Of a DNA stretch of 64,000 bases, positions 8,093-55,700 are shown in pieces. How positions within the stretch are numbered: the first letter of the stretch is position 1; every line of letters starts with the position of its first letter. The notes beneath the pieces were generated by a model. The model worked only from the letters and a program-made list of their open reading frames with translations, was not told the origin of the DNA and did no database searches. The position numbers were made by a program, and so were the translations under genes. Origin of the DNA: Eledone cirrhosa (lineage: Eukaryota); the NCBI GenBank assembly GCA_964016885.1, contig OZ024741.1, positions 369,706,001-369,770,000 of the forward strand, in the 5' to 3' direction.

Positions 8093-8722
8093 TCGATTGA
8101 GTTAGAAACTCAAAATAGTCTTTTACAATTAAAGAAGGGAATCTTTCCGAGCCGTGTAATATAATTGGATATATGTGATATATGTATACATGTGTTCCAA
8201 TTGCAAATGACTAAGTTAGCTAGGTTGAAAAATACCAATTTAAAACAATATACTTTGTCTTACTCGATTTAACGTAATAAATTAATAAAAATAACAAACC
8301 TATTACGGGCAAATAGCCTTTGATACCCGGACAGACGTAAATCTGTTTCGCAAGAATTATTACGTGAAAGCTAGAATTCCTGTGCTCTTCTGAGGGTATC
8401 CAGGAAAATTCGTACCTTTCACCTCAAAGGATCTAAGAAGAAGGAACGATGTGCTGGTATAAACGCACATGTCGCAGAGCCTAACACGTCTCATACTCAT
8501 GCCGCTAAAAATAGTAGCTGGGTTTATCAGACTAAAGTTAGCTCTACATACGGAGCCGTGAATATCATAGATTGAGTTAGAAACACAAAATAGTCTTTTA
8601 CAATTAAATATCTCAAAGAAGGGAATCTTTCCGAGCCGTGTAATATAATTGGATATATGAGAGGGATGAACACAGATAAAAGTATACATGTGTTCCAATT
8701 GCAAATGACCAAGTTAGCTAAC
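8091..8722 (-). mobile_element. Non-coding HHR-bearing unit, family B (retrozyme candidate), period about 475 bp
   Basis: 8091-8222 repeats at 8566-8722; one HHR between the repeats; no credible ORF; 3' end in (TA)n and mirrored at 7967-8001. Confidence 0.75.
8322..8400 (-). ncRNA. Type I hammerhead ribozyme (family B, core mutated)
   Basis: Minus strand: GATACCCT-CAGAAGA-GCA..TGC-GAAA-CAGA tttacg TCTG-TC-CGGGTATC; GUC cleavage triplet. Confidence 0.7.
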
Positions 8723-9120
8723 CTATATAGAATTCTAGTGAGCATCAATAAATGCGAAAGAAGGCCTTGTCAGCTTTATCTCCCCTGTTTGCTGAAAATT
8801 AAAGTAAGTGAGTCTGTAACTACTCTAAAACAACAGCATAAGGTCTTCGAAATGCTTTTAATTAAGCATACAGTGTATTGCAAAATACACTATATATACA
8901 TTCATATACATATAGCTATTTCAGAGCACCAATTCTAATTTTTAATTTCTGCTGGACCGGCATCCGCTCTGTATAATCAGTTCCTGATTATTTATTAGAA
9001 TTCTATATGAACCAAACATCAATGATTTCAGCAAACAGGAGGAGTAGTTGGCTTTGATAAGCATCAATAAATGCGAAAGAAGGCCTTGTCAGCTTTATCT
9101 CCCCTGTTTGCTGAAAATGA

Positions 9121-9300
9121 AAGGTTGGTTAAATAACCGGGTGGTTGCTTATATATCATCAAATCTCTTTCATCACGCATTCTGTCACCTCCTCAGTGAC
9201 TGGAGTCTTATTTTGCGTCTCTCCTTTGTTCTGTCCTACACCATCTTGTATTTATGTGTTGACAACACACGAAAACAAAATGGTGTAGGACAGACACACG
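9121..9300 (-). mobile_element. Degraded family A pseudo-LTR with decayed HHR
   Basis: Aligns to about 52880-53020; minus strand AGTCA-CTGAGGA-GGTGACAGAATGCGTGAT-GAAA. Confidence 0.65.
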
Positions 9301-9341
9301 TTTTTAGATAAGAAATCTTGCAAAGCAAACTAAAAAATGAA

Positions 9342-9446
<105 letters not shown>

Positions 9447-9973
9447 TATAAATAAGAGTTTAGATGAGTTGATAATACAACAATATAAAGGCAAAGAATA
9501 TGAATATTTCAAAGCCCAATGTGATTTAATAGTCCACAGCAAGATACCATTCCGTATATATCTATATTTATTCAATTATATACATACATATATACATGAT
9601 GGCTACCCCGTCCTTATCGAGTATGGCCATTGTACGATATACCATTATTAATAATTATTAATTAATTCTATCGTGCAATGCCTGTGCATGAAGATATTAT
9701 TTAAAGTGAGGAAAGACTGTGCACTGAGCCAAACCCACACTCTGAGCGACAGTAGCTATAACCCGAAAAGAAGAAAAGATCAACAAAATCGGTTAACTAC
9801 TGAGTCGTGGGTTTTATATCGGAGTTATCCCAATTTCCTGAGTTGCCTTCTCCTAGAAGAATGCCCTGATAAAGGCTAGAGGTCCTTCACTCCCAGTGCA
9901 CCCATGTATATACACATATACAAATACATACATATGTACATGTGTATATACATACATACATATATACGTACAC

Positions 9974-10088
<115 letters not shown>

Positions 10089-10105
10089 TATATATGTATG
10101 TATGT

Positions 10106-11095
10106 ATCACTTTCTGGAATATGATAAAAAACCTCAACAAAGCTGGAATTTACCAAAAATGGATTAACTCAACACCAATAGTTTTACCACCTAAATTCCA
10201 AATAAAGCATATTACAAACGAACCTGAACCAGAAAGAAAACTCCGTGAACAAATGTCACTCAACAGGATAAACATGGAAATAGAACTCCTAAAATTAAGG
10301 GCCACCTCAAACGAGCAAGAGTATAAGGATACTGATAAAAATATGGAGGAAGAATGCACTAAAAAGGCCGAGGGAAAAACCCTACAAAATTTAATCAAAT
10401 CGTGGAAACAGGACTGCGAGAATGCAGAAACTATTTCCTTTAAACGGTGGGAAAAATCCGAAAACTGGTTCCTCAAATATGAAGAAGACTTTAAAAGGAC
10501 GCACCAAACAGGTAACCCCTTTATAAAGCATTTGAACATAACAAGAACTACAACAGACACATTTACACCACCAAACCCAACACACACTAACCACAGGCAC
10601 ATCCCCCACCAACACAAACCAAATACGGCCAACTACACCAAAAGAAACACACCCAACCACCACAACACAGGTTTCCGTAGAAATGCCCCCTACATAAACC
10701 AACGACGAAATAACATAGATCCAACTCACAACACACACACCACATTCCTCAGAAGAAATCCACCCAGACCACTTGAAATCACAACAGAACTTACCCACAA
10801 CCACACCAGACATCACCCTCAATCCAACAAAAGACAACCCCCCAACCTCAACACTCTGTACCACAGAAATAACGCACCCAGACCACATGAACCAACAACA
10901 GAACCCTTGCTCATCAACAACCACAACACATACCACCCCCACCATCACATTCACCCTCATGAAACAACAAGCTACAGACCCACACGCAACAGACCAACAA
11001 AATATAATCACACACAAAACTACATTCCTTTTTTAAGGAAAAGCCTGAAATACCAGGATACTCGATGGCCCCCCCTCAGGAGAAACCAAAAATAA
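10106..11095 (+). CDS. PLE ORF1: helical/coiled-coil-like N-part and N/H/T/R-rich low-complexity C-part
   Basis: About 330 open codons after the microsatellite (first ATG at 10121); heptad-like RKLREQMSLNRINMEIELLKLRATSNEQEYKDTDKNMEEE; same A/C-rich codon bias as ORF2. Confidence 0.75.
   Translation: MTFWNMIKNLNKAGIYQKWINSTPIVLPPKFQIKHITNEPEPERKLREQMSLNRINMEIELLKLRATSNEQEYKDTDKNMEEECTKKAEGKTLQNLIKSWKQDCENAETISFKRWEKSENWFLKYEEDFKRTHQTGNPFIKHLNITRTTTDTFTPPNPTHTNHRHIPHQHKPNTANYTKRNTPNHHNTGFRRNAPYINQRRNNIDPTHNTHTTFLRRNPPRPLEITTELTHNHTRHHPQSNKRQPPNLNTLYHRNNAPRPHEPTTEPLLINNHNTYHPHHHIHPHETTSYRPTRNRPTKYNHTQNYIPFLRKSLKYQDTRWPPLRRNQK
11029..11080 (+). promoter_or_regulatory. Putative -1 programmed frameshift signal (T TTT TTA plus downstream stem)
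   Basis: Heptamer 11029-11035 is in ORF1 phase (CCT TTT TTA). The -1 frame is open from 11008 into ORF2. After an 8-nt spacer, CCTG(A) can pair with CAGG 11054-57 or TCAGG 11076-80. Confidence 0.6.
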
Positions 11096-13341
11096 TCAAC
11101 CTCTCAAAGACACCTCTAACCAACACACAAATCAACATTTTAAGTAAGGGCCTGAAATTTACACCTACACCACGTAAACCAAACTTCCCCGAAATGAAGG
11201 ATGACATCATGGAATACTGCCGAAAGCTGCGACTAACGGAATTCTTCCACAACGACACCAACACTGAAGACGAATCACTGGTTAGAAATAAAAGCAATTT
11301 CTGCCCACAAAAGGGAAGAAATAAAGCACTGGACACGTACTGCGAACACATCACCAACTTTCCCTATGAAAAAATTACAAATAAACACACGAAATCAAAC
11401 CTATCTACACACGAATGGGAAGAATTATTCACACTTAGAAACAACCCTGAGATAACTATCAAAGAAGCCGATAAAGGCAGTACTGTTGTCATTATGAATA
11501 CGGACTACTATAGGACCCTCGCACTTAACATTTTAGAAAACAACACATACTATGAAAAAACAGAAAACTACAAACACACTAAAACAATGGGGAACCTTTT
11601 GACCTTACTGAATAAATACCGCAACAGCTTAACCACAAAAGAGTTTAACTATATAAGCCACTTCAAATGCAATACAAGCTCTTTTTACGGCTTACCGAAA
11701 CTCCACAAATGTAAACCCATAAACGATGCATGTGACACCTCAACCAACAATTACATTGAACTAACACCACCAGAAGACCTAAAACTCAGGCCAATTATAG
11801 CAGGCCCTACATGTGAAACCCACAGACTTAGCAACTTTCTGGACATCCTACTGAAACCCTTTCTACAACATATACAGAGCTACATACGAGATGACCTTGA
11901 CATGCTGAAACACCTCCCTAAAACAGTAAGTGCAAATACAATTCTTGTCTCCTTTGACGTAATAAACCTCTACACAAACATACCCCACAACTATGGAATA
12001 ACAGCAGTCCAATACTGGCTTAACACACACCCATCAGAAATACCGACACGCATCAACACAGACTTTATCACTGACGGACTCCGCTTTATCCTACAAAATA
12101 ACTACTTCACATTCAATGGTTCAACATACAGACAAGTATCAGGTACGGCAATGGGCACGAAAGTAGCACCCACATATGCCAACCTAGTCATGGGATTCCA
12201 TGAACAACAAATATACAGTCAGTCCCTTCTCTTATTTGGAGACTCTTTCCACACACACCTCAAAGCCAATTGGAAAAGATATCTAGACGACTGCTTTATC
12301 CTATGGCAAGAAGACATGAACTCACTTACTACGTTTAAAAACATGATAAACAACATAGATAATAACATACAATTCACAATGGAATCCAATCCTAAGGAAT
12401 TAGCCTTCTTGGATATTCTCATCTCTGTAATAGACGGGAAATTAGATACAGATATATTCTATAAACCCACAGATTCCAAGCAATACCTCTTTTTCACATC
12501 AAGTCACCCAAAACATACAAAACTTAACATTCCTTACAATTTGGCCAAACGTATATGTACCATAGTATCAGATCCACCTAAACGGGAGCAAAGACTAAAG
12601 GAACTAAAAGACACCCTTATCTTAAGAGCCTTTCCACTTGAAATAATCAACAATGGAATAGACAGGGCAAAACACCTAAATCCCCATCAACTTAACAATC
12701 CAAAACAGAAAACCACACTCAACACCCTGCCATATGTATCCACTTTCAACCCCAGAAATACCGAAATGTTTGATCACCTACACAAAAACCTCCCCATCCT
12801 ACTTAAAGATGTAAAAATGAAGTCTATTCTTGAAACACACAAGATCCTTAAAAGTAAAAGACAACCCAAATCACTTAAACGCATTCTCACTGGACCAAAT
12901 ATACCCAAACCAATCCTCAACCCTACAGTTACCAAATGTGGTAGAACAAACTGTGGAACGTGCCTCTACCTCACTGAAGGACAAACATTTACATTCAAAG
13001 ATGGCCAAACATTTACAGTAAAAAACAATTTCACCTGCAACTCGGAGAACTTGATTTACGCAATAACTTGCGGTGGGTGCAAACACAACTACATAGGACA
13101 GACGGGCACCTCATTACGCAAAAGAATGACCATCCACCGCCAACAAATCCGGGACGCTAACACAAGAAAAATCCCCTTGAGCAGCCATATTGCGAACTGC
13201 GCAGGAATGACACTACCCAACTTTAAAATCTTCCCCTTCTACAAGTGCTCAGATTCGTTCACACAGCAACAAAGAATAAACAAAGAAAATCTATTCCTTA
13301 ACAAATTTAAACCAAAACTAAACGGGTTATCACCCCAATAG
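11065..13341 (+). CDS. PLE reverse transcriptase plus GIY-YIG endonuclease (uninterrupted, 758 aa)
   Basis: Motifs IINLS, LSKGLKFTP, ADKG, YGLPKLHK, RPII, FDVINLYTNIP, GTAMG, RYLDD, FLDI, linker CGRTNCGTC, NLIYAITCGGCKHNYIGQT..RMTIH, PKLN. Confidence 0.95.
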   Translation: MAPPQEKPKIINLSKTPLTNTQINILSKGLKFTPTPRKPNFPEMKDDIMEYCRKLRLTEFFHNDTNTEDESLVRNKSNFCPQKGRNKALDTYCEHITNFPYEKITNKHTKSNLSTHEWEELFTLRNNPEITIKEADKGSTVVIMNTDYYRTLALNILENNTYYEKTENYKHTKTMGNLLTLLNKYRNSLTTKEFNYISHFKCNTSSFYGLPKLHKCKPINDACDTSTNNYIELTPPEDLKLRPIIAGPTCETHRLSNFLDILLKPFLQHIQSYIRDDLDMLKHLPKTVSANTILVSFDVINLYTNIPHNYGITAVQYWLNTHPSEIPTRINTDFITDGLRFILQNNYFTFNGSTYRQVSGTAMGTKVAPTYANLVMGFHEQQIYSQSLLLFGDSFHTHLKANWKRYLDDCFILWQEDMNSLTTFKNMINNIDNNIQFTMESNPKELAFLDILISVIDGKLDTDIFYKPTDSKQYLFFTSSHPKHTKLNIPYNLAKRICTIVSDPPKREQRLKELKDTLILRAFPLEIINNGIDRAKHLNPHQLNNPKQKTTLNTLPYVSTFNPRNTEMFDHLHKNLPILLKDVKMKSILETHKILKSKRQPKSLKRILTGPNIPKPILNPTVTKCGRTNCGTCLYLTEGQTFTFKDGQTFTVKNNFTCNSENLIYAITCGGCKHNYIGQTGTSLRKRMTIHRQQIRDANTRKIPLSSHIANCAGMTLPNFKIFPFYKCSDSFTQQQRINKENLFLNKFKPKLNGLSPQ

Positions 13342-13800
13342 AATTGTCATAATATATAAACACACATACGCACGGAATCACTACTATTAAAGACCAGAGA
13401 CCAATTCTGTAGAATCAGGTTTATTCATTGACAGACCATGCCTTTGTGTGACCAACACATCCATGTTAAACCCTGCACGTGCACACACATATATCTATAT
13501 ATATATGCGCACACAGAATTCACCACTGTCGGTTGCGGGGCCCAATCTACATGAAGAACTCAATGTGATCAGAATGACTTGTATTTTAATTTCACTGTCC
13601 CAACTTCTTATATTATGGAAAAAATATATGTGTCTGTATGTATATATATATATATATATATATTTGGAGGCCATTTCTCTGTGTGTGGGTGTATGTATGT
13701 GTATATGTGTGTGTGTGTGTATGTGTGTGCATGTGGATGTATGTATTGTGTGTGCGTGTGTGTGTGTGTGTGTATGTATGTGTGTATCTGGATGTATGCG

Positions 13801-13831
<31 letters not shown>

Positions 13832-13950
13832 GCGTGTGTGTGTGTGTATATATATGTGTGTGTATGTGTGTATATATATGTGTGTGTGTGTGTGTATGTT
13901 TGTATGTGTGTATGTATATATATATGTGTGTGTGTGTGTATGTATGTGTG

Positions 13951-14051
<101 letters not shown>

Positions 14052-14092
14052 ATGTATGTGTGTATCTGGATGTATGTGTATGTATATATATA

Positions 14093-14125
<33 letters not shown>

Positions 14126-14200
14126 GTGTGTGTATGTGTATATATGTGTGTGTGTGTGTATGTGTGTATGTATATGTATGTGTGTGTGTATGTATGTGTG

Positions 14201-14241
<41 letters not shown>

Positions 14242-14599
14242 GTATATGTATGTATGTGTGGATGAAGGTATGTGTGTGTATATATAGGTGTAAGTGCACT
14301 AAATCCCTTTCTATCACGCTCCACTTTCCTACCCACCACAGGAAGATATGTGTATGTATATTGCTTCCACCCCCTCACTGACCAGCAGCTGGCCAGTTGG
14401 TGATTGCTAAATCTGACCTTTATAAAATAACCCACACCCCAAATAACTTCTCATTCACTACCAGAAAGGGACACAGCAGTCAACCTGTTGTTGCTACCTA
14501 GATGAAAACTGCTATGAAATCCCACAATGAACTTTATACTTGAATTTTCAAATCTCAAATTTTAACTCTTCGTATTATTAATTTTTCTTAATGTTAATC

Positions 14600-14647
14600 A
14601 ACATTTGAAAAGATGGCTTTTGCAGACCCATCGAAACCGGTCATTTT
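14600..14647 (+). ncRNA. Minimal HHR with U3:A8 core variant in the PLE 3' region
   Basis: AACAT-TTGAAAA-GATGG..CCATC-GAAA-CCGG-TC-ATTTT; palindromic stem III ACCGGT; stem I weak. Confidence 0.65.
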
Positions 14648-14783
14648 TTATACCCTTTATTATTTCCTTACCTTATAAAATTATGTTTTTTCACAAAAAA
14701 GTATTCTGTCTCTTATATATTCCATGTGCCATTACCAACCTCAATTTTCTCTATAACCTTAGTTTTGTGTAGAAAATTACACT

Positions 14784-24130: not shown

Positions 24131-26543
24131 GAGGGTGTTAAAGTTTGCTTGAAGCATTGTGAAATGTGTAAAAATACGTATTTAAGAAAGCCACAACAAT
24201 GCAAAGGGAAATCTCGAGGTAGGAAGTGAAATATAGATAGGAAAAACAGGTGAAAGTGAAAATTGAGAGAGACAAAGATGAAAACAAAACAAAGGTAGAA
24301 GGGTTACCGTAGTAGAGATTTAATCCCAATATTTCGGGCTCACGCCCATCAACGGGGGAAAAGTTCCAAAAGGGGGGAAACAGGCCAAGCGGAGAAAGTT
24401 GTGATGTCGTTAAGACAGGAATGCCGTTATGGGGAGAAAAATATTAAAAATTTAAACGAGGGAAAGAATGCGCGTGCGCGCGATAGGCTGTGGCAAAAGC
24501 TACTGACCAAATGGGTTAAATCAAGAGGGTGCGTTAGCGTGTGAAAGCCGTAAGATATGTGTATGTAAATATATATGTGTGTGTAACTGTGTGTGTATAA
24601 GTGTAAGTGTGTATATGTGTGAGTGTGTGTGTGTGTGAAAGATAGTGGGCTGTAGAAGTTGGAAATCAAAGGGTGTGAAAGGTGGTAGGTTGTAAAATAT
24701 GTGTGCGTGTATAAATATAGATGTGTGTGTGTAAGCGTATGGGTATACATGTGTGTGTAACTGTGTGTGTATATGTGTGAGTGCGTTTGTGTGTGAAAGA
24801 TAGTGGGCTGTAGAAGCTGGAAATCAAAGGGTGTGAAAGGTGGTAGGTTGTAAAAACATGTGTGCGTGTATAAATATAGATGTGTGTGTGTATGCGTATG
24901 GGTATGCATATACGTGCGTGTGTGTGAAGATAGCAGGCCGTAGGCTGTGAATGGTCATTATGGTTAAGTTAGCCATGTCAGCTCATTTCTCTCAGCCCGG
25001 TTGTTAAGTGGGGGTCTGAGGTTCTTAATAACAAGTGCTTCCTTTATCCTTAAGGATCCGATGCTGCGTTCAGTCGCTGGGACTGTGACCAAGGGTCTAC
25101 CCTGTGGGTTTCCGCATTTAAGGATATGTTTACGGAAGGAAGATGCGTTGGTGTTGATATGTTCCTTGATACGAACATGTAGGGGTCGGATGGTGCTACC
25201 TATGTAAAACTTGTTACATTTATCGCATTGAATCTTATATACGACATAGGTGCGTAGGCAATCTGCCCCCCGTATCGGGCAGTTGCTGAGGGAACACGTC
25301 CCATCTGCCTCGTAGGGTTTGTTGGAGAGGCATCTTCGCAGCGAAGGTCCTGTGTGGGCCAAATGTATGTCAAGTCCCTCCGTCCGTATGGCCCTGCGGA
25401 TGGCGTTCGTGGTATATTCACTCAGGTGGGGGCTTTTAAAGAAGCACCTGCTAATATTAGGTTTTCTAGTGGGTGTCAGTCTACTGGGTCTGGGGTCTCT
25501 AATTCCGTTAATCAGTCGCTTGGGATAACCATTAGATCTGAGTAGATTACGGAATTGCGTGGTATGGGTGAGACCACCCATCGGGTCGCTGCATCTGTTA
25601 GTGATCCGTGTCAGTTCATTTAGGACATAGCCTCTCTTAGCGTTGTTGGGGAGGGCTGAGTTATAATGCACAAATAAGTCCTTGCACGCTGCTTTGCGGT
25701 AGAAGGTGGTGTTTATGTCTCCTTCTTCCGAGATGTTGATACGGAAGTCGAGGAGGGCGAGTGACCCGTCTTCTCCTGGGTGTTCGATGGTGAAATCGAT
25801 GTGCTGGTCAGTATCGTTGAAGATTTGGTGAATTTCATTCGCCATCTCCCGGGAAGAGGTAAGTATCAGGATATCATCAACGTATCTGGAGTAGAAGGCG
25901 ACGGCGTTGGGTTGGCAGGTATTGAGTGCCTTGCGTTCCAGGTGGTCCATGTACGAGATCGCAAGTATGCCGGACAGACTAGAGCCCATAGGTAGCCCAG
26001 AGATTTGTTTGTACGTGTGGCCGAGGAAATTGAAGAGTGCATTATCCACAACGAAGGAGAGGAGTTGGTGGATGTCCGTGTGTGTGAGTCCGAAGCAGTG
26101 TAAGTTAGATGCTCGGACTCGTTCGGTCAACAGGTCGACAGCTGGGGATGCTGGTACGGAGGTATAAAGGGCGACCACATCAAGACTGAAGGCATAACCG
26201 TTGTCCTTTCTGGTGTTGGGCGCCAGATGGTGTAGTCGCTCCAAGACTTCCTTTGAGCTGCAGACGTGGGCTGGTAGTGTGTGTAGAATAGGTTTCAGTA
26301 GTGTGGAGAGCAGCCACGATATTTTGTAGAGTGGGCCCTCCACGCTAGAGACAATGGGCCTGATTTTCAAATCGGGTCCTTGTTTATGTGTTTTGACCAG
26401 GTGGTAGAAGGTGGGTAATTTGCTGTTTCGAGTCATTATGTTGTTTTTTACCTTCTTTGGCAGTTTTCGTTGGACACAGATGTTAGTCCATATGGTGTTA
26501 ATGCCTTCCTCGATTAGAGTCGAGGAGGTCCCTGTGACTTTAG
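24130..26543 (-). mobile_element. 5'-truncated PLE (Nematis-like by linker motif; clade uncertain)
   Basis: RT-EN ORF plus a 3' UTR with a tandem duplication of about 180 bp; (TA)n on both flanks. Confidence 0.9.
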
Positions 26544-52772: not shown

Positions 52773-55700
52773 ATACTTTGGGAGGGTCATGTTGCCAATA
52801 AGGAACACACGCACCAGTTGCTTTTACTTCAATTTATTATAAATTTATAAATTTAGGAATTTATAAATTTCCGGTTGGTTGGTTGGTTCCACAACCAGGT
52901 GGCTGTTTATATATAGTCAAAGTTCTTTCGTCACACATTCTGTGACCTCTTCAGTGACTGGGGATTCCTTTATTTGTTTTTGTGCCTCTCCTTTGTTCTG
53001 TCCTACGCCATCTTGTTTCTGTGTGTGTGTTGTGTGCTCAGTCTGCGCATGCGCCACATCCGGGTGTCTGTGTGTGTTTATATTAGTTTATTTATTTGTT
53101 TATTTACATGTTACTGGTTGTTTGGTTGTTCTATGTGCGTGTGTGTTTTCATTCTGTCCTTAATTGTAAGTTGTGATGTTGCTGTTCCACTCATGTTTTC
53201 TATTTAATTTTGGTTGGAGTTCATTTATGTTTATTGCCTCTGTGATTTGTCTAAACATTGCGTCTTTTCTGTGTGTAGATTCTATTTTTATTTCTATGCT
53301 CTTTAATTTACCCTTATGTTCTATTTTAGCATGTTGGTAGAGTACAGATGATTCTTTACTATCTTGAAGGTCTCGCCAGTGTTCATTTATCCGTTCCCCT
53401 ATACTACGAGCTGTCTCACCTATGTACACTATATTTTTATCTCTACACTGTACTTCAGTACATCTTATGCTATATACTACATTTCTAGTTTTACAGTTAA
53501 TATGGGGGCTTAATTTACAGATTATACATTTCTTATCTATACAGGGAGGTCTTTGAAAAGGGTATGTCTTGCTAATAAGTGTTTTTATGGCGGTACCTGG
53601 TCTTTCTACTATCTTAATATTGAGTTTATGTTTATCTAGGGCCCTTCTAAATTTGTAAGCTAATTCACCTCTAGGGGTTGTATCGATGAACATTACACTC
53701 TGGTATTTAATGCTATCATACGATGCGTTTATTCTATTAGCCTTATTCCTAGTTCTTTCTATTCTATTCCAAAATGTGCTCCTATACAAGGGGCAGGTCC
53801 CATTTGTGTCATTATTTACCATTTTTTCCCATTTGGTTCTGGCTCCTCTATATACTCTGATTTTATCTCTCTGATTGTAACCAGAGAACTGCATACGGTG
53901 GATGAAGTGTTGTATGTGTCTCTCTAGTTCTTCGGGGTTGCACATGCGGGACACGTTTCTCATCACCCGTACCAAATCCGCAATCAGTATGTTGATTTTG
54001 GTATGGTCCGAAACAGCTGAGTTTCGGTGGATCAGATATTTGGAAGTCATGGGTTTGGCATAATGGGAATGGAGGATTTGTTCTTTGTTATTAATGGTAT
54101 CTAACCAGAGCTCTGTGTCTAGTACGGGTAATCGATGGTTGGGGTGTTTGCTTGGGTAGTCTATAGTAACTCTAATACTCTGGTGGATGGAGTTAGCTAT
54201 TTGCTGGATGCTTTTCATTGTGTTTTTCTCTAGTTCCTGACTGTTCTCCAGTGGGGTGTTTTAACTACGATGTTTATATCATCAACGTAGCGGGAGTACA
54301 TTACCAGGGTTAAGGGGTCTTCTAATTGTTCTTTAAGTTTAAGTTTAAGTCTATTGTCCCACCATACCATGAATAAGTTAGCTATGTCGCCTGCAATGCT
54401 AACACCAATGGCTGCTCCCTCCTCTTGGGCATATGTTTTTCCATTAAATTTGAACATATGTTCCTTAAGGGTTAATTTTATGCTGGCCCCTACCGCATGT
54501 GCAATCATTTTCTTAAGTTCATGGTGGTTTTCGGGGGTCCGTATGGCTCTTGTCCACCCGTTCCATCTATCTGTGTGGGTTTTCTTGTCCATTGAGGTAA
54601 TGGTAGGTGGTCTGCCTCTTGCTGGTCTTGTAGGGCACAGATTGCTAAGGTCATATGTATCTAGATAATTATTACTATAGGTAAGTTTAAGTAGGAGTCC
54701 CAGCTCACTGGTATCAATCCCACTGAATTCAACATTGCTCTCACTGATCATTTCTATGCATTTCTCTACAGCAAAATCCACGTCAATAGATGGATACAGG
54801 GACACAACATCCATACTACCTATTATGCAGCCTCTTAGGTCCCTAGATCGGTTACTCTCGCCGATTCTGCTGAGGAGGTCCTCCGTGCCGTCACATACAT
54901 CTGGGGACATTTCAATGATGGGGCGTATGATCAGGGAGAGGAAGTAGGACAGTCTGTAGTTACTAGCAATGTTAGCTCCACAGACTGGCCGTGTTGGTGG
55001 TCCTATGACAGGGTCACTGCTCGTTTTATGGTCTTTTCGAAGCCCATAAAACGCTGGCACGTCATTGTTCCAGTCCTGGAAGTTGTTGGCAGTCCTTTTG
55101 TTGGGCTGCATTATATTTGTCCACATCATCATATGAGCATTGAGGGCTTTTTCTCTATCCTCATGCTCTTGTGGTGTTACTTCTCTTGTGTTAGTGATGT
55201 GGGTTGCATTGCCTGGATGTAGTTTGGCAGACTGCCAACCGACATTCTGCCAGACTTGTCTGTTGGAAAGCATGCTATCTCTCCATTATGCGAGCGCTGT
55301 ATGAGCTTACGCAAGCCATTTGCAGATTTTTCTCCCAGTTGCTGGGCCTCCATTCTATTATGCTTTTTGCTATACTGTTCTATAATATTTCTAAGTTTAG
55401 ATCTAGCTATACTAAATTTTTCTCTTGGTGTGGTGATCTTAGTTATTTCTTGTATTAGGTTAGGCTTATGTTTTTCTTGATGACTTAATTCTCTATAGAT
55501 CTTCTTTTTTATGTTTAGAATTAGTGTTCGTTTTAGCCTATCTGCTTGCTTTTTGGTGAGCTGTAATCTTCTTACATCATGTTGATGGTGTTGGTGTAAA
55601 CTCGGGACGAGGCACATTCTTTTATGAAGTGTAGTTGTCGAGATGTTATTGTTTTTCGTAGACAACAGATCATGGTGGTTTTCAGTATCTTGTTAGCCTG

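Follow-up and report, generated by a model that had tools for sequence, protein, structure and literature searches.

A two-ORF, endonuclease-positive Penelope-like element in Eledone cirrhosa with a predicted −1 ribosomal frameshift ahead of its reverse transcriptase

The stretch of DNA analyzed here (the window) comprises 64,000 nucleotides (nt) of Eledone cirrhosa (NCBI GenBank assembly GCA_964016885.1, contig OZ024741.1, positions 369,706,001 to 369,770,000 of the forward strand) and contains an endonuclease-positive (EN+) Penelope-like retrotransposon, a multi-copy element with two overlapping open reading frames (ORFs). The upstream ORF1 is followed by a frame for a reverse transcriptase and endonuclease (RT-EN, or ORF2), and the features of the element, numbered from the first letter of the window, are as follows.

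10107..11095, plus strand: ORF1, 5'-truncated (residues 93–421 of the 421-residue family protein), with a helical N-terminal domain and then a low-complexity tail rich in H, N, T, P and R
11008..13341, plus strand: RT-EN reading frame in the −1 offset to ORF1, 777 codons from stop to stop, with an RVT_1 match and 972 homologues
11029..11035, plus strand: slippery heptamer T TTT TTA in ORF1 phase, the predicted −1 shift site
11044..11057, plus strand: small hairpin CCTG-AAATAC-CAGG, 8 nt 3' of the heptamer, weak and not kept by sister families
11065..11076, plus strand: in-frame ATG and then a C7 run, the length of which is often altered among copies
12937..13341, plus strand: zinc-finger-like C-X4-CxxC motif plus a GIY-YIG endonuclease with CCHH, Neptune-type by an eye comparison with the supplementary EN alignment of PMC8557442
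13342..14790, plus strand: 3' region with internal microsatellites and a pseudo-long terminal repeat (pseudo-LTR), ending in a (TA)n run
14290..14772, plus strand: candidate intron of the 5' untranslated region (5'-UTR) inside the pseudo-LTR, GTAAGT ... TTTTGTGTAG, predicted from sequence

The RT-EN frame opens after a TAA at 11005–11007 and stays open to 13341. Its product carries a Pfam RVT_1 match at residues 259–447 (E 4.4e-7) together with the N-terminal motifs IINLS..KGL.F.P and GTAMG of a Penelope-like RT; a GIY-YIG endonuclease with CCHH can be read at the C-terminus (LIY..C..C..YIG..H..H). A Pfam scan of the window protein returned no GIY-YIG match, and PF01541 is a precomputed annotation on many of its relatives. 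Between RT and EN, the linker holds a CX2-5CxxC motif (CGRTNCGTC, 12937–12963) that by eye matches the Neptune rows in the supplement of PMC8557442. Neptune-type EN+ elements combine an RT, a GIY-YIG EN with CCHH at the C-terminus, a CX2-5CxxC linker, pseudo-LTRs and microsatellite targets (Craig et al. 2021, PMC8557442), and canonical EN+ elements are described as single-ORF (PMC8557442). The window element shares each of these domain, linker, repeat and target traits, the last through the (TA)n at its 3' end. Unlike Neptune-type elements, it has a separate ORF1 in −1 overlap with a conserved heptamer, and no hammerhead was found: Rfam matched none in 9000–14500, where unusual forms could escape, and a core-motif scan of one full copy gave a match solely inside the RT frame. 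Where the canonical element has an N-terminus, RT and EN in a single ORF, the modal copy and the clade have two ORFs in −1 offset, and for this reason the element is classed as a two-ORF variant of the Neptune-type EN+ Penelope-like elements.

ORF1 ends in a TAA at 11093–11095 and shares 88 nt with the RT-EN frame, which lies in the −1 offset. Within the overlap lies TTTTTTA (11029–11035), of which TTT (11030–32) and TTA (11033–35) are codons in ORF1 phase, followed by the CCTG at 11044–47, an ATG of the RT-EN frame at 11065 and a C7 run at 11069–11075. A preliminary description of this DNA had specified the TAA, the overlap, the heptamer phase, the 8-nt spacer, the CCTG and the ATG, and all of these coordinates hold on the sequence. 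In the first 100 of the 181 pattern matches, the heptamer is exact in 94 copies, the length of the T run is unchanged in 99 (hand count) and a seventh T occurs in none. The A at 11036 is nearly private to the window, as the 29 other loci compared all read TTTTTTAGGG (F-L-G-K in ORF1), a set biased by having been gathered with a junction-containing query, and an A occupies this position in 2 of the 100 listed copies. The offset and the heptamer are kept in many copies and lineages and thus do not represent a private indel; the concern that a 1-nt indel in a homopolymer could mimic the arrangement is contradicted by the uniform run length and the clade-wide heptamer.

The family itself is large and homogeneous, with at least 181 junction pattern matches among copies ~99% alike (mean pairwise identity ~99.3%) and a census of 748 candidates, likewise gathered with a junction-containing query, in which all 40 that were scored were ~100% identical. 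Its copies are interstitial and spread over many contigs rather than telomeric, and the family is young and recently amplified. The window copy is truncated at 10107, with codons 1–92 of ORF1 missing, and without the start of this ORF it is probably inactive.

The arrangement recurs in divergent relatives. In the same genome, TTTTTTA is in phase at 25 of 25 loci of a family designated B, at 11 of 14 loci of family C (two others have a downstream indel and one has lost the site) and at the single locus of family D, and families B and C are 58% identical to the window family in RT-EN. Intact foreign loci with an ORF1 homologue show the −1 offset in five of five cases, with an in-phase TTTTTTA in L114, L115, L118 and L122 and TTTTTTG in L071, and L120 and L128 also share the −1 layout. 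The heptamer is in phase at six foreign loci, two of which read TTTTTTG. Lineages with an in-phase heptamer are only 38–58% identical in RT, and a quick RT tree, which included no named Neptune references, recovered the T6 clade with 100% support (9 rows among 40 relatives). The preliminary description had proposed a GIY-YIG element with a separate, −1-offset ORF1. The two sequence outcomes that it named as refuting, an uninterrupted ORF in the family and a heptamer that is not kept, did not arise: ORF1 and RT-EN lie in separate frames, and the heptamer keeps its phase across these lineages.

Protein homologues carry the same signature. Searches found 514 ORF1 homologues at E ≤ 0.001, and none of the 150 listed (57–546 residues, no length limit set) is fused to an RT; the best 120 of the 972 RT relatives are 42–59% identical and 640–803 residues long (limit 1327). 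Phe-Leu occurs within the last 50 residues in 65 of the 78 ORF1 homologues of at least 330 residues (the 72 shorter proteins among the 150 were omitted as probable fragments), compared with 4 of 78 in the preceding 50 residues and an expected 4.4, and none of the other residue pairs tested near the end of ORF1 was comparable. The residue preceding Phe-Leu is compatible with a final U in 66 of 66 cases (P ~4e-7 assuming independence, which does not fully hold), and the per-lineage chance of TTT, TTR and a preceding T, calculated from codon use, is 0.008–0.16 for the 10 lineages that could be estimated. Additionally, the first in-frame ATG of ORF2 lies downstream of the RT N-terminal IINLS motif in eight of eight related lineages (families B, C and D and five foreign loci).

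Between families, ORF1 has a proportion of nonsynonymous differences (pN) of 0.30–0.31 against a synonymous proportion (pS) of 0.67–0.77, and the protein is under purifying selection. In a full copy, ORF1 encodes 421 residues from its own ATG, and structure prediction, a check suggested at the outset, gave a confidently helical domain: residues 1–240 form five long helices in the AlphaFold model (predicted local distance difference test 91.5). Foldseek matched this model to nothing in PDB or BFVD at E ≤ 0.001, the best VIA match (Z 8.9) falls within the generic range for helical bundles, no Pfam family is common to more than one of 97 ORF1 members, the Atlas comparison returned one weak unnamed match (0.75) and a scan of viral contigs found no relative of the element. 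From its position and make-up, ORF1 is probably an RNA-packaging or particle protein, in a role like that of Gag or of ORF1p in long interspersed nuclear elements.

It is likely that the RT-EN of this element is made through a programmed −1 shift of the ribosome at U UUU UUA. The case builds on what can be read directly in the sequences, namely the two-ORF layout and −1 offset, the clade-wide in-phase heptamer, the selection acting on ORF1 and the absence of a conserved ORF2 start, and at this level the gag/pol-like strategy first suggested for the element gains support. Most ribosomes would stop at the ORF1 TAA and yield the 421-residue helical protein with its disordered basic tail, and a minority would slip −1 at the heptamer to produce an ORF1-RT-EN fusion of ~1170 residues. 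The shift rate would be low, by estimate perhaps a few percent, because no 3' structure is conserved. U_UUU_UUA is the shift site of human immunodeficiency virus (HIV) and the alphaviruses, and G_GGU_UUU is among the most shift-prone heptamers (PMC5009743, PMC2569925); alphaviruses keep their heptamer while the 3' signals vary (PMC2569925). The window element thus resembles HIV-1 gag-pol and alphavirus 6K/TF in its heptamer and zero-frame Phe-Leu, and differs from them in that the T6 clade lacks a strong conserved stem-loop, ORF1 has no match to a capsid fold and the element belongs to neither the viruses nor the LTR elements. In 28 of 51 animal LTR elements pol is in the −1 frame (PMC5009743), and like LTR gag-pol the window element and its relatives have an upstream, putatively structural ORF that is either fused to or −1-shifted from the enzyme ORF. 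Unlike LTR retrotransposons, it has a different class of RT, no protease, RNase H or integrase, and an ORF1 that forms a bundle of long helices.

Several observations weigh against frameshifting. The RNA downstream of the heptamer is poorly structured: the CCTG-AAATAC-CAGG stem can form, but its stability equals that of shuffled sequences (z 0.0 and −0.4) and sister families do not keep it, so the stem proposed in the preliminary description is not upheld. Pseudoknot-free folding in families C and D amounts to 0 to −0.8 kcal/mol, and z falls below −2 in one of nine lineages and is ~0 in the window family. L121 sits inside the clade yet lacks the T6 site, the TTTTTTG of L071 violates the usual heptamer rule (Z not G), and the terminal Phe-Leu is missing in 13 of the 78 ORF1 homologues. 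All nine TTTTTTA lineages continue with G and so also spell a splice acceptor. Retention of this G could also reflect the UAG stop that it creates in the third frame. The RT-EN frame has its in-frame ATG at 11065, 8 codons before the RT motif, and the predicted proteins of ~53 of 120 RT relatives start ahead of that motif (a hand count, in which gene callers write M for non-ATG starts as well). The −1 offset is gone in 36 of 100 copies through changes in the C run, and the alignment of the window-clade ORF1 with the N-terminal domain fused to RT in other lineages, described below, matches the same motif at E 0.02–0.03 and is suggestive only.

A second EN+ lineage carries what is a cleaner signal than that of the window family. 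This distant lineage, ~29% identical in RT and known from one metagenome record set, is arranged in tandem arrays and has a separate ORF1 in the same offset, with G GGT TTY in phase immediately ahead of the ORF1 stop in 11 loci (L155, L167–L171, L179–L181, L185 and L187); two further loci have degenerate heptamers. Its ORF1 is 340–425 residues long, apart from one truncated at the locus edge and one with a shorter frame. The spacer is a constant 9 nt, and a hairpin follows in 9 of the 11 loci, with five different inner stems that are all complementary. A stable 3' stem-loop or pseudoknot is expected 5–9 nt downstream of a frameshift heptamer; a stem-loop of this kind is predicted for this distant lineage only and not for the T6 clade. 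By HHalign (94.5%, E 8e-8), the ORF1 of the G GGT TTY lineage shares homology with the N-terminal part that four single-ORF relatives carry in frame. One domain is therefore joined to RT in some lineages and set apart by a shift in others, a pattern likewise known for gag-pol. Profile comparison of the window ORF1 with the ORF1 of this lineage was not significant (E 0.22 and 0.45).

A broader proposal is held tentatively, at somewhat less than even confidence: that the N-terminal helical domain of EN+ Penelope-like elements is a Gag-like ORF1, fused to RT in some lineages and, in at least two further ones, expressed by −1 frameshifting at different heptamers (U UUU UUA lacking a conserved RNA structure, and G GGU UUY with a covarying hairpin), and that the hundreds of ORF1 homologues without a Pfam family constitute an unannotated class of retroelement structural protein, new to print. 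Among other loci, L148 has an N-terminal domain in −1 offset with no canonical heptamer, and L184 (2998–3864) carries, in the frame of its RT, an additional long N-terminal domain that appears protease-like by eye. It was also observed that animal-type Penelope-like elements occur in prokaryotic genome bins (L071–L113), most likely through host contamination.

The main competing explanation, which we regard as unlikely and which the preliminary description does not raise, is that TTTTTTAG is a 3' splice site, with unspliced RNA giving ORF1 and RNA spliced from the pseudo-LTR or within ORF1 giving RT-EN. The G after the heptamer in nine of nine TTTTTTA lineages would fit such an acceptor, Penelope-like elements are described as keeping introns (PMC8557442), and the pseudo-LTR of the window family contains a consensus donor. 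A sister lineage (L147:454–500, L132:688–740, L157 and L141) has an AT-rich, intron-like leader with YAG directly before the same RT motif, which by its sequence appears to be a third way of joining an N-terminus to the RT. These leaders differ from the window junction, being stopped in all frames where ORF1 continues past the site with no stop in 11 of 12 loci, in phase 0 rather than phase 2, and 35–55% T where the 20 nt upstream of the site are 5–25% T. Moreover, two lineages read TTTTTTG-T with no AG at that point, the residue after Phe-Leu cannot begin with G in 25 of 66 ORF1 proteins, the run is pure T even though an acceptor would accept C, and the G GGT TTY lineage does not match an acceptor. 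A search of sequencing runs listed no RNA run that carries the element. No joint ending at TTTTTTAG was found among 15 of 26 joints in contigs, from four runs of unrecorded kind, that were aligned to a full copy. One contig of run X4 (depth 4.86) spans the junction with an extra T, possibly an error at such depth, and was not used.

The candidate pseudo-LTR intron, with its consensus donor and acceptor, resembles the 5'-UTR intron of Penelope. Full copies are ordered pseudo-LTR, 421-residue ORF1, RT-EN frame and pseudo-LTR, with inverted repeats in some and a (TA)n terminus; the end of the 3' region is repeated directly upstream of ORF1 and in some copies is inverted as well. The upstream twin of the candidate intron (L065:3553–4029 among full copies) stops 44 nt before the ORF1 ATG, and pseudo-LTR copies lie in partial tandem or inverted arrangement (e.g., L065 3324–4051 equals 8099–8828). 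A 62-nt segment (window ~13520–13585) is present in the window, L061, L062 and L064 and absent from L063, L065 and others, defining two 3'-UTR forms of the family. In sequencing run X1 the pseudo-LTR (L065:3660–4064) has a depth tens of times that of the ORFs, a hint that many copies are solo or non-autonomous. Elsewhere in the window, older RT fragments 26–33% identical to ORF2 lie at 25471–26412 and 54347–55054, both on the minus strand.

Less probable than splicing is the independent translation of ORF2 from AUG 11065, through reinitiation or on a shorter RNA, with Phe-Leu kept for a reason at the protein level. The preliminary description had itself raised the ORF2 start as a caveat, and the ATG is real, sits 8 codons ahead of the RT motif and finds a parallel in the ~53 of 120 relatives predicted to start upstream of that motif. 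At the DNA level, however, a comparable ATG is absent from all eight related lineages, which weakens the caveat, and retention of Phe-Leu would not demand TTT, TTR and a preceding T every time, given the low per-lineage chance noted above.

The frames might also be joined in RNA or DNA, either by a polymerase that slips and adds a base at T6 or by copies fused at the C run that supply enzyme for all, which we judge a little more improbable again. The C run does vary, as an early caution about indels there had anticipated: in the first 100 of 159 matches, counted by hand for gaps of 5–17 nt only and so without longer C runs, 56 copies have the modal length and 44 differ, with 64 copies keeping the −1 offset, 15 fused and 21 in +1. 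Some of the fused copies have a fully open frame of 1176–1181 codons. Fused copies are dispersed over a weakly resolved RT DNA tree of 53 copies, and their monophyly is rejected by the approximately unbiased test (p-AU 4e-70 for all 11 fused rows of 53 and p-AU 0.003 for the four C8 copies), so they look like the result of recurrent slippage and not a master lineage. Families B and C keep the heptamer with no C run, and no seventh T was seen in the genomic copies. Six T is short for transcriptional slippage, which also counts against a slipping polymerase. The run grows to as much as ~25 nt independently in many sub-lineages (L031–L053), which suggests stuttering of the element's own RT, and misassembly of long homopolymers may widen the spread; the C7 run is a mutation hotspot that independently fuses ~15% of copies. 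Finally, an assembly error or the decay of a single-ORF element, which the homopolymer setting and the variable C run might suggest, is very improbable and is refuted by cross-lineage conservation, since the offset and heptamer recur in four families of this genome and in public assemblies made independently, with no fused homologue among the 150 ORF1 and 120 RT proteins listed.

It should be noted that two-ORF layouts have been described for other Penelope-like elements. The known types have been summarized as having one ORF (RT and EN) or two ORFs without EN (PMC6431247), and killifish Neptune is described with two non-overlapping ORFs, the mechanism not being stated (PMC12602865). Like the EN-less, telomeric Athena/Terminon and Coprina elements, which include coiled-coil ORFs, the window family has two ORFs; unlike them, it has an EN and many interstitial sites. 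The legend to Fig. 1 of PMC8557442 mentions an ORF1 separable by a frameshift with a pseudoknot, probably with reference to Athena. The figure behind this legend may already show the layout seen in the window. The available portions of PMC3846280, PMC5718144, PMC6515669, PMC5408684, PMC13282606, PMC7943196 and bioRxiv 2026.07.22.740005 do not describe a programmed frameshift for EN+ elements. The search of the Penelope-like literature found no paper that does so, with Arkhipova 2006, the 2017 Terminon paper, PMC1890498, PMC5850863 and Repbase outside its coverage, and earlier notice in print of an EN+ two-ORF frameshift layout is a real possibility, if the lesser one.

Penelope-like elements form the sister group to telomerase RTs, and the way in which they assemble to transpose is poorly understood. 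Should the clade-wide frameshift be true, Penelope-like elements would set the ratio of structural protein to enzyme as retroviruses do, and annotations of an RT-only ORF in such genomes would miss the true N-terminus. The clade would also offer recoding studies a natural series of U6A sites with no obvious stimulator, and because the family is young and abundant, the prediction is directly testable.

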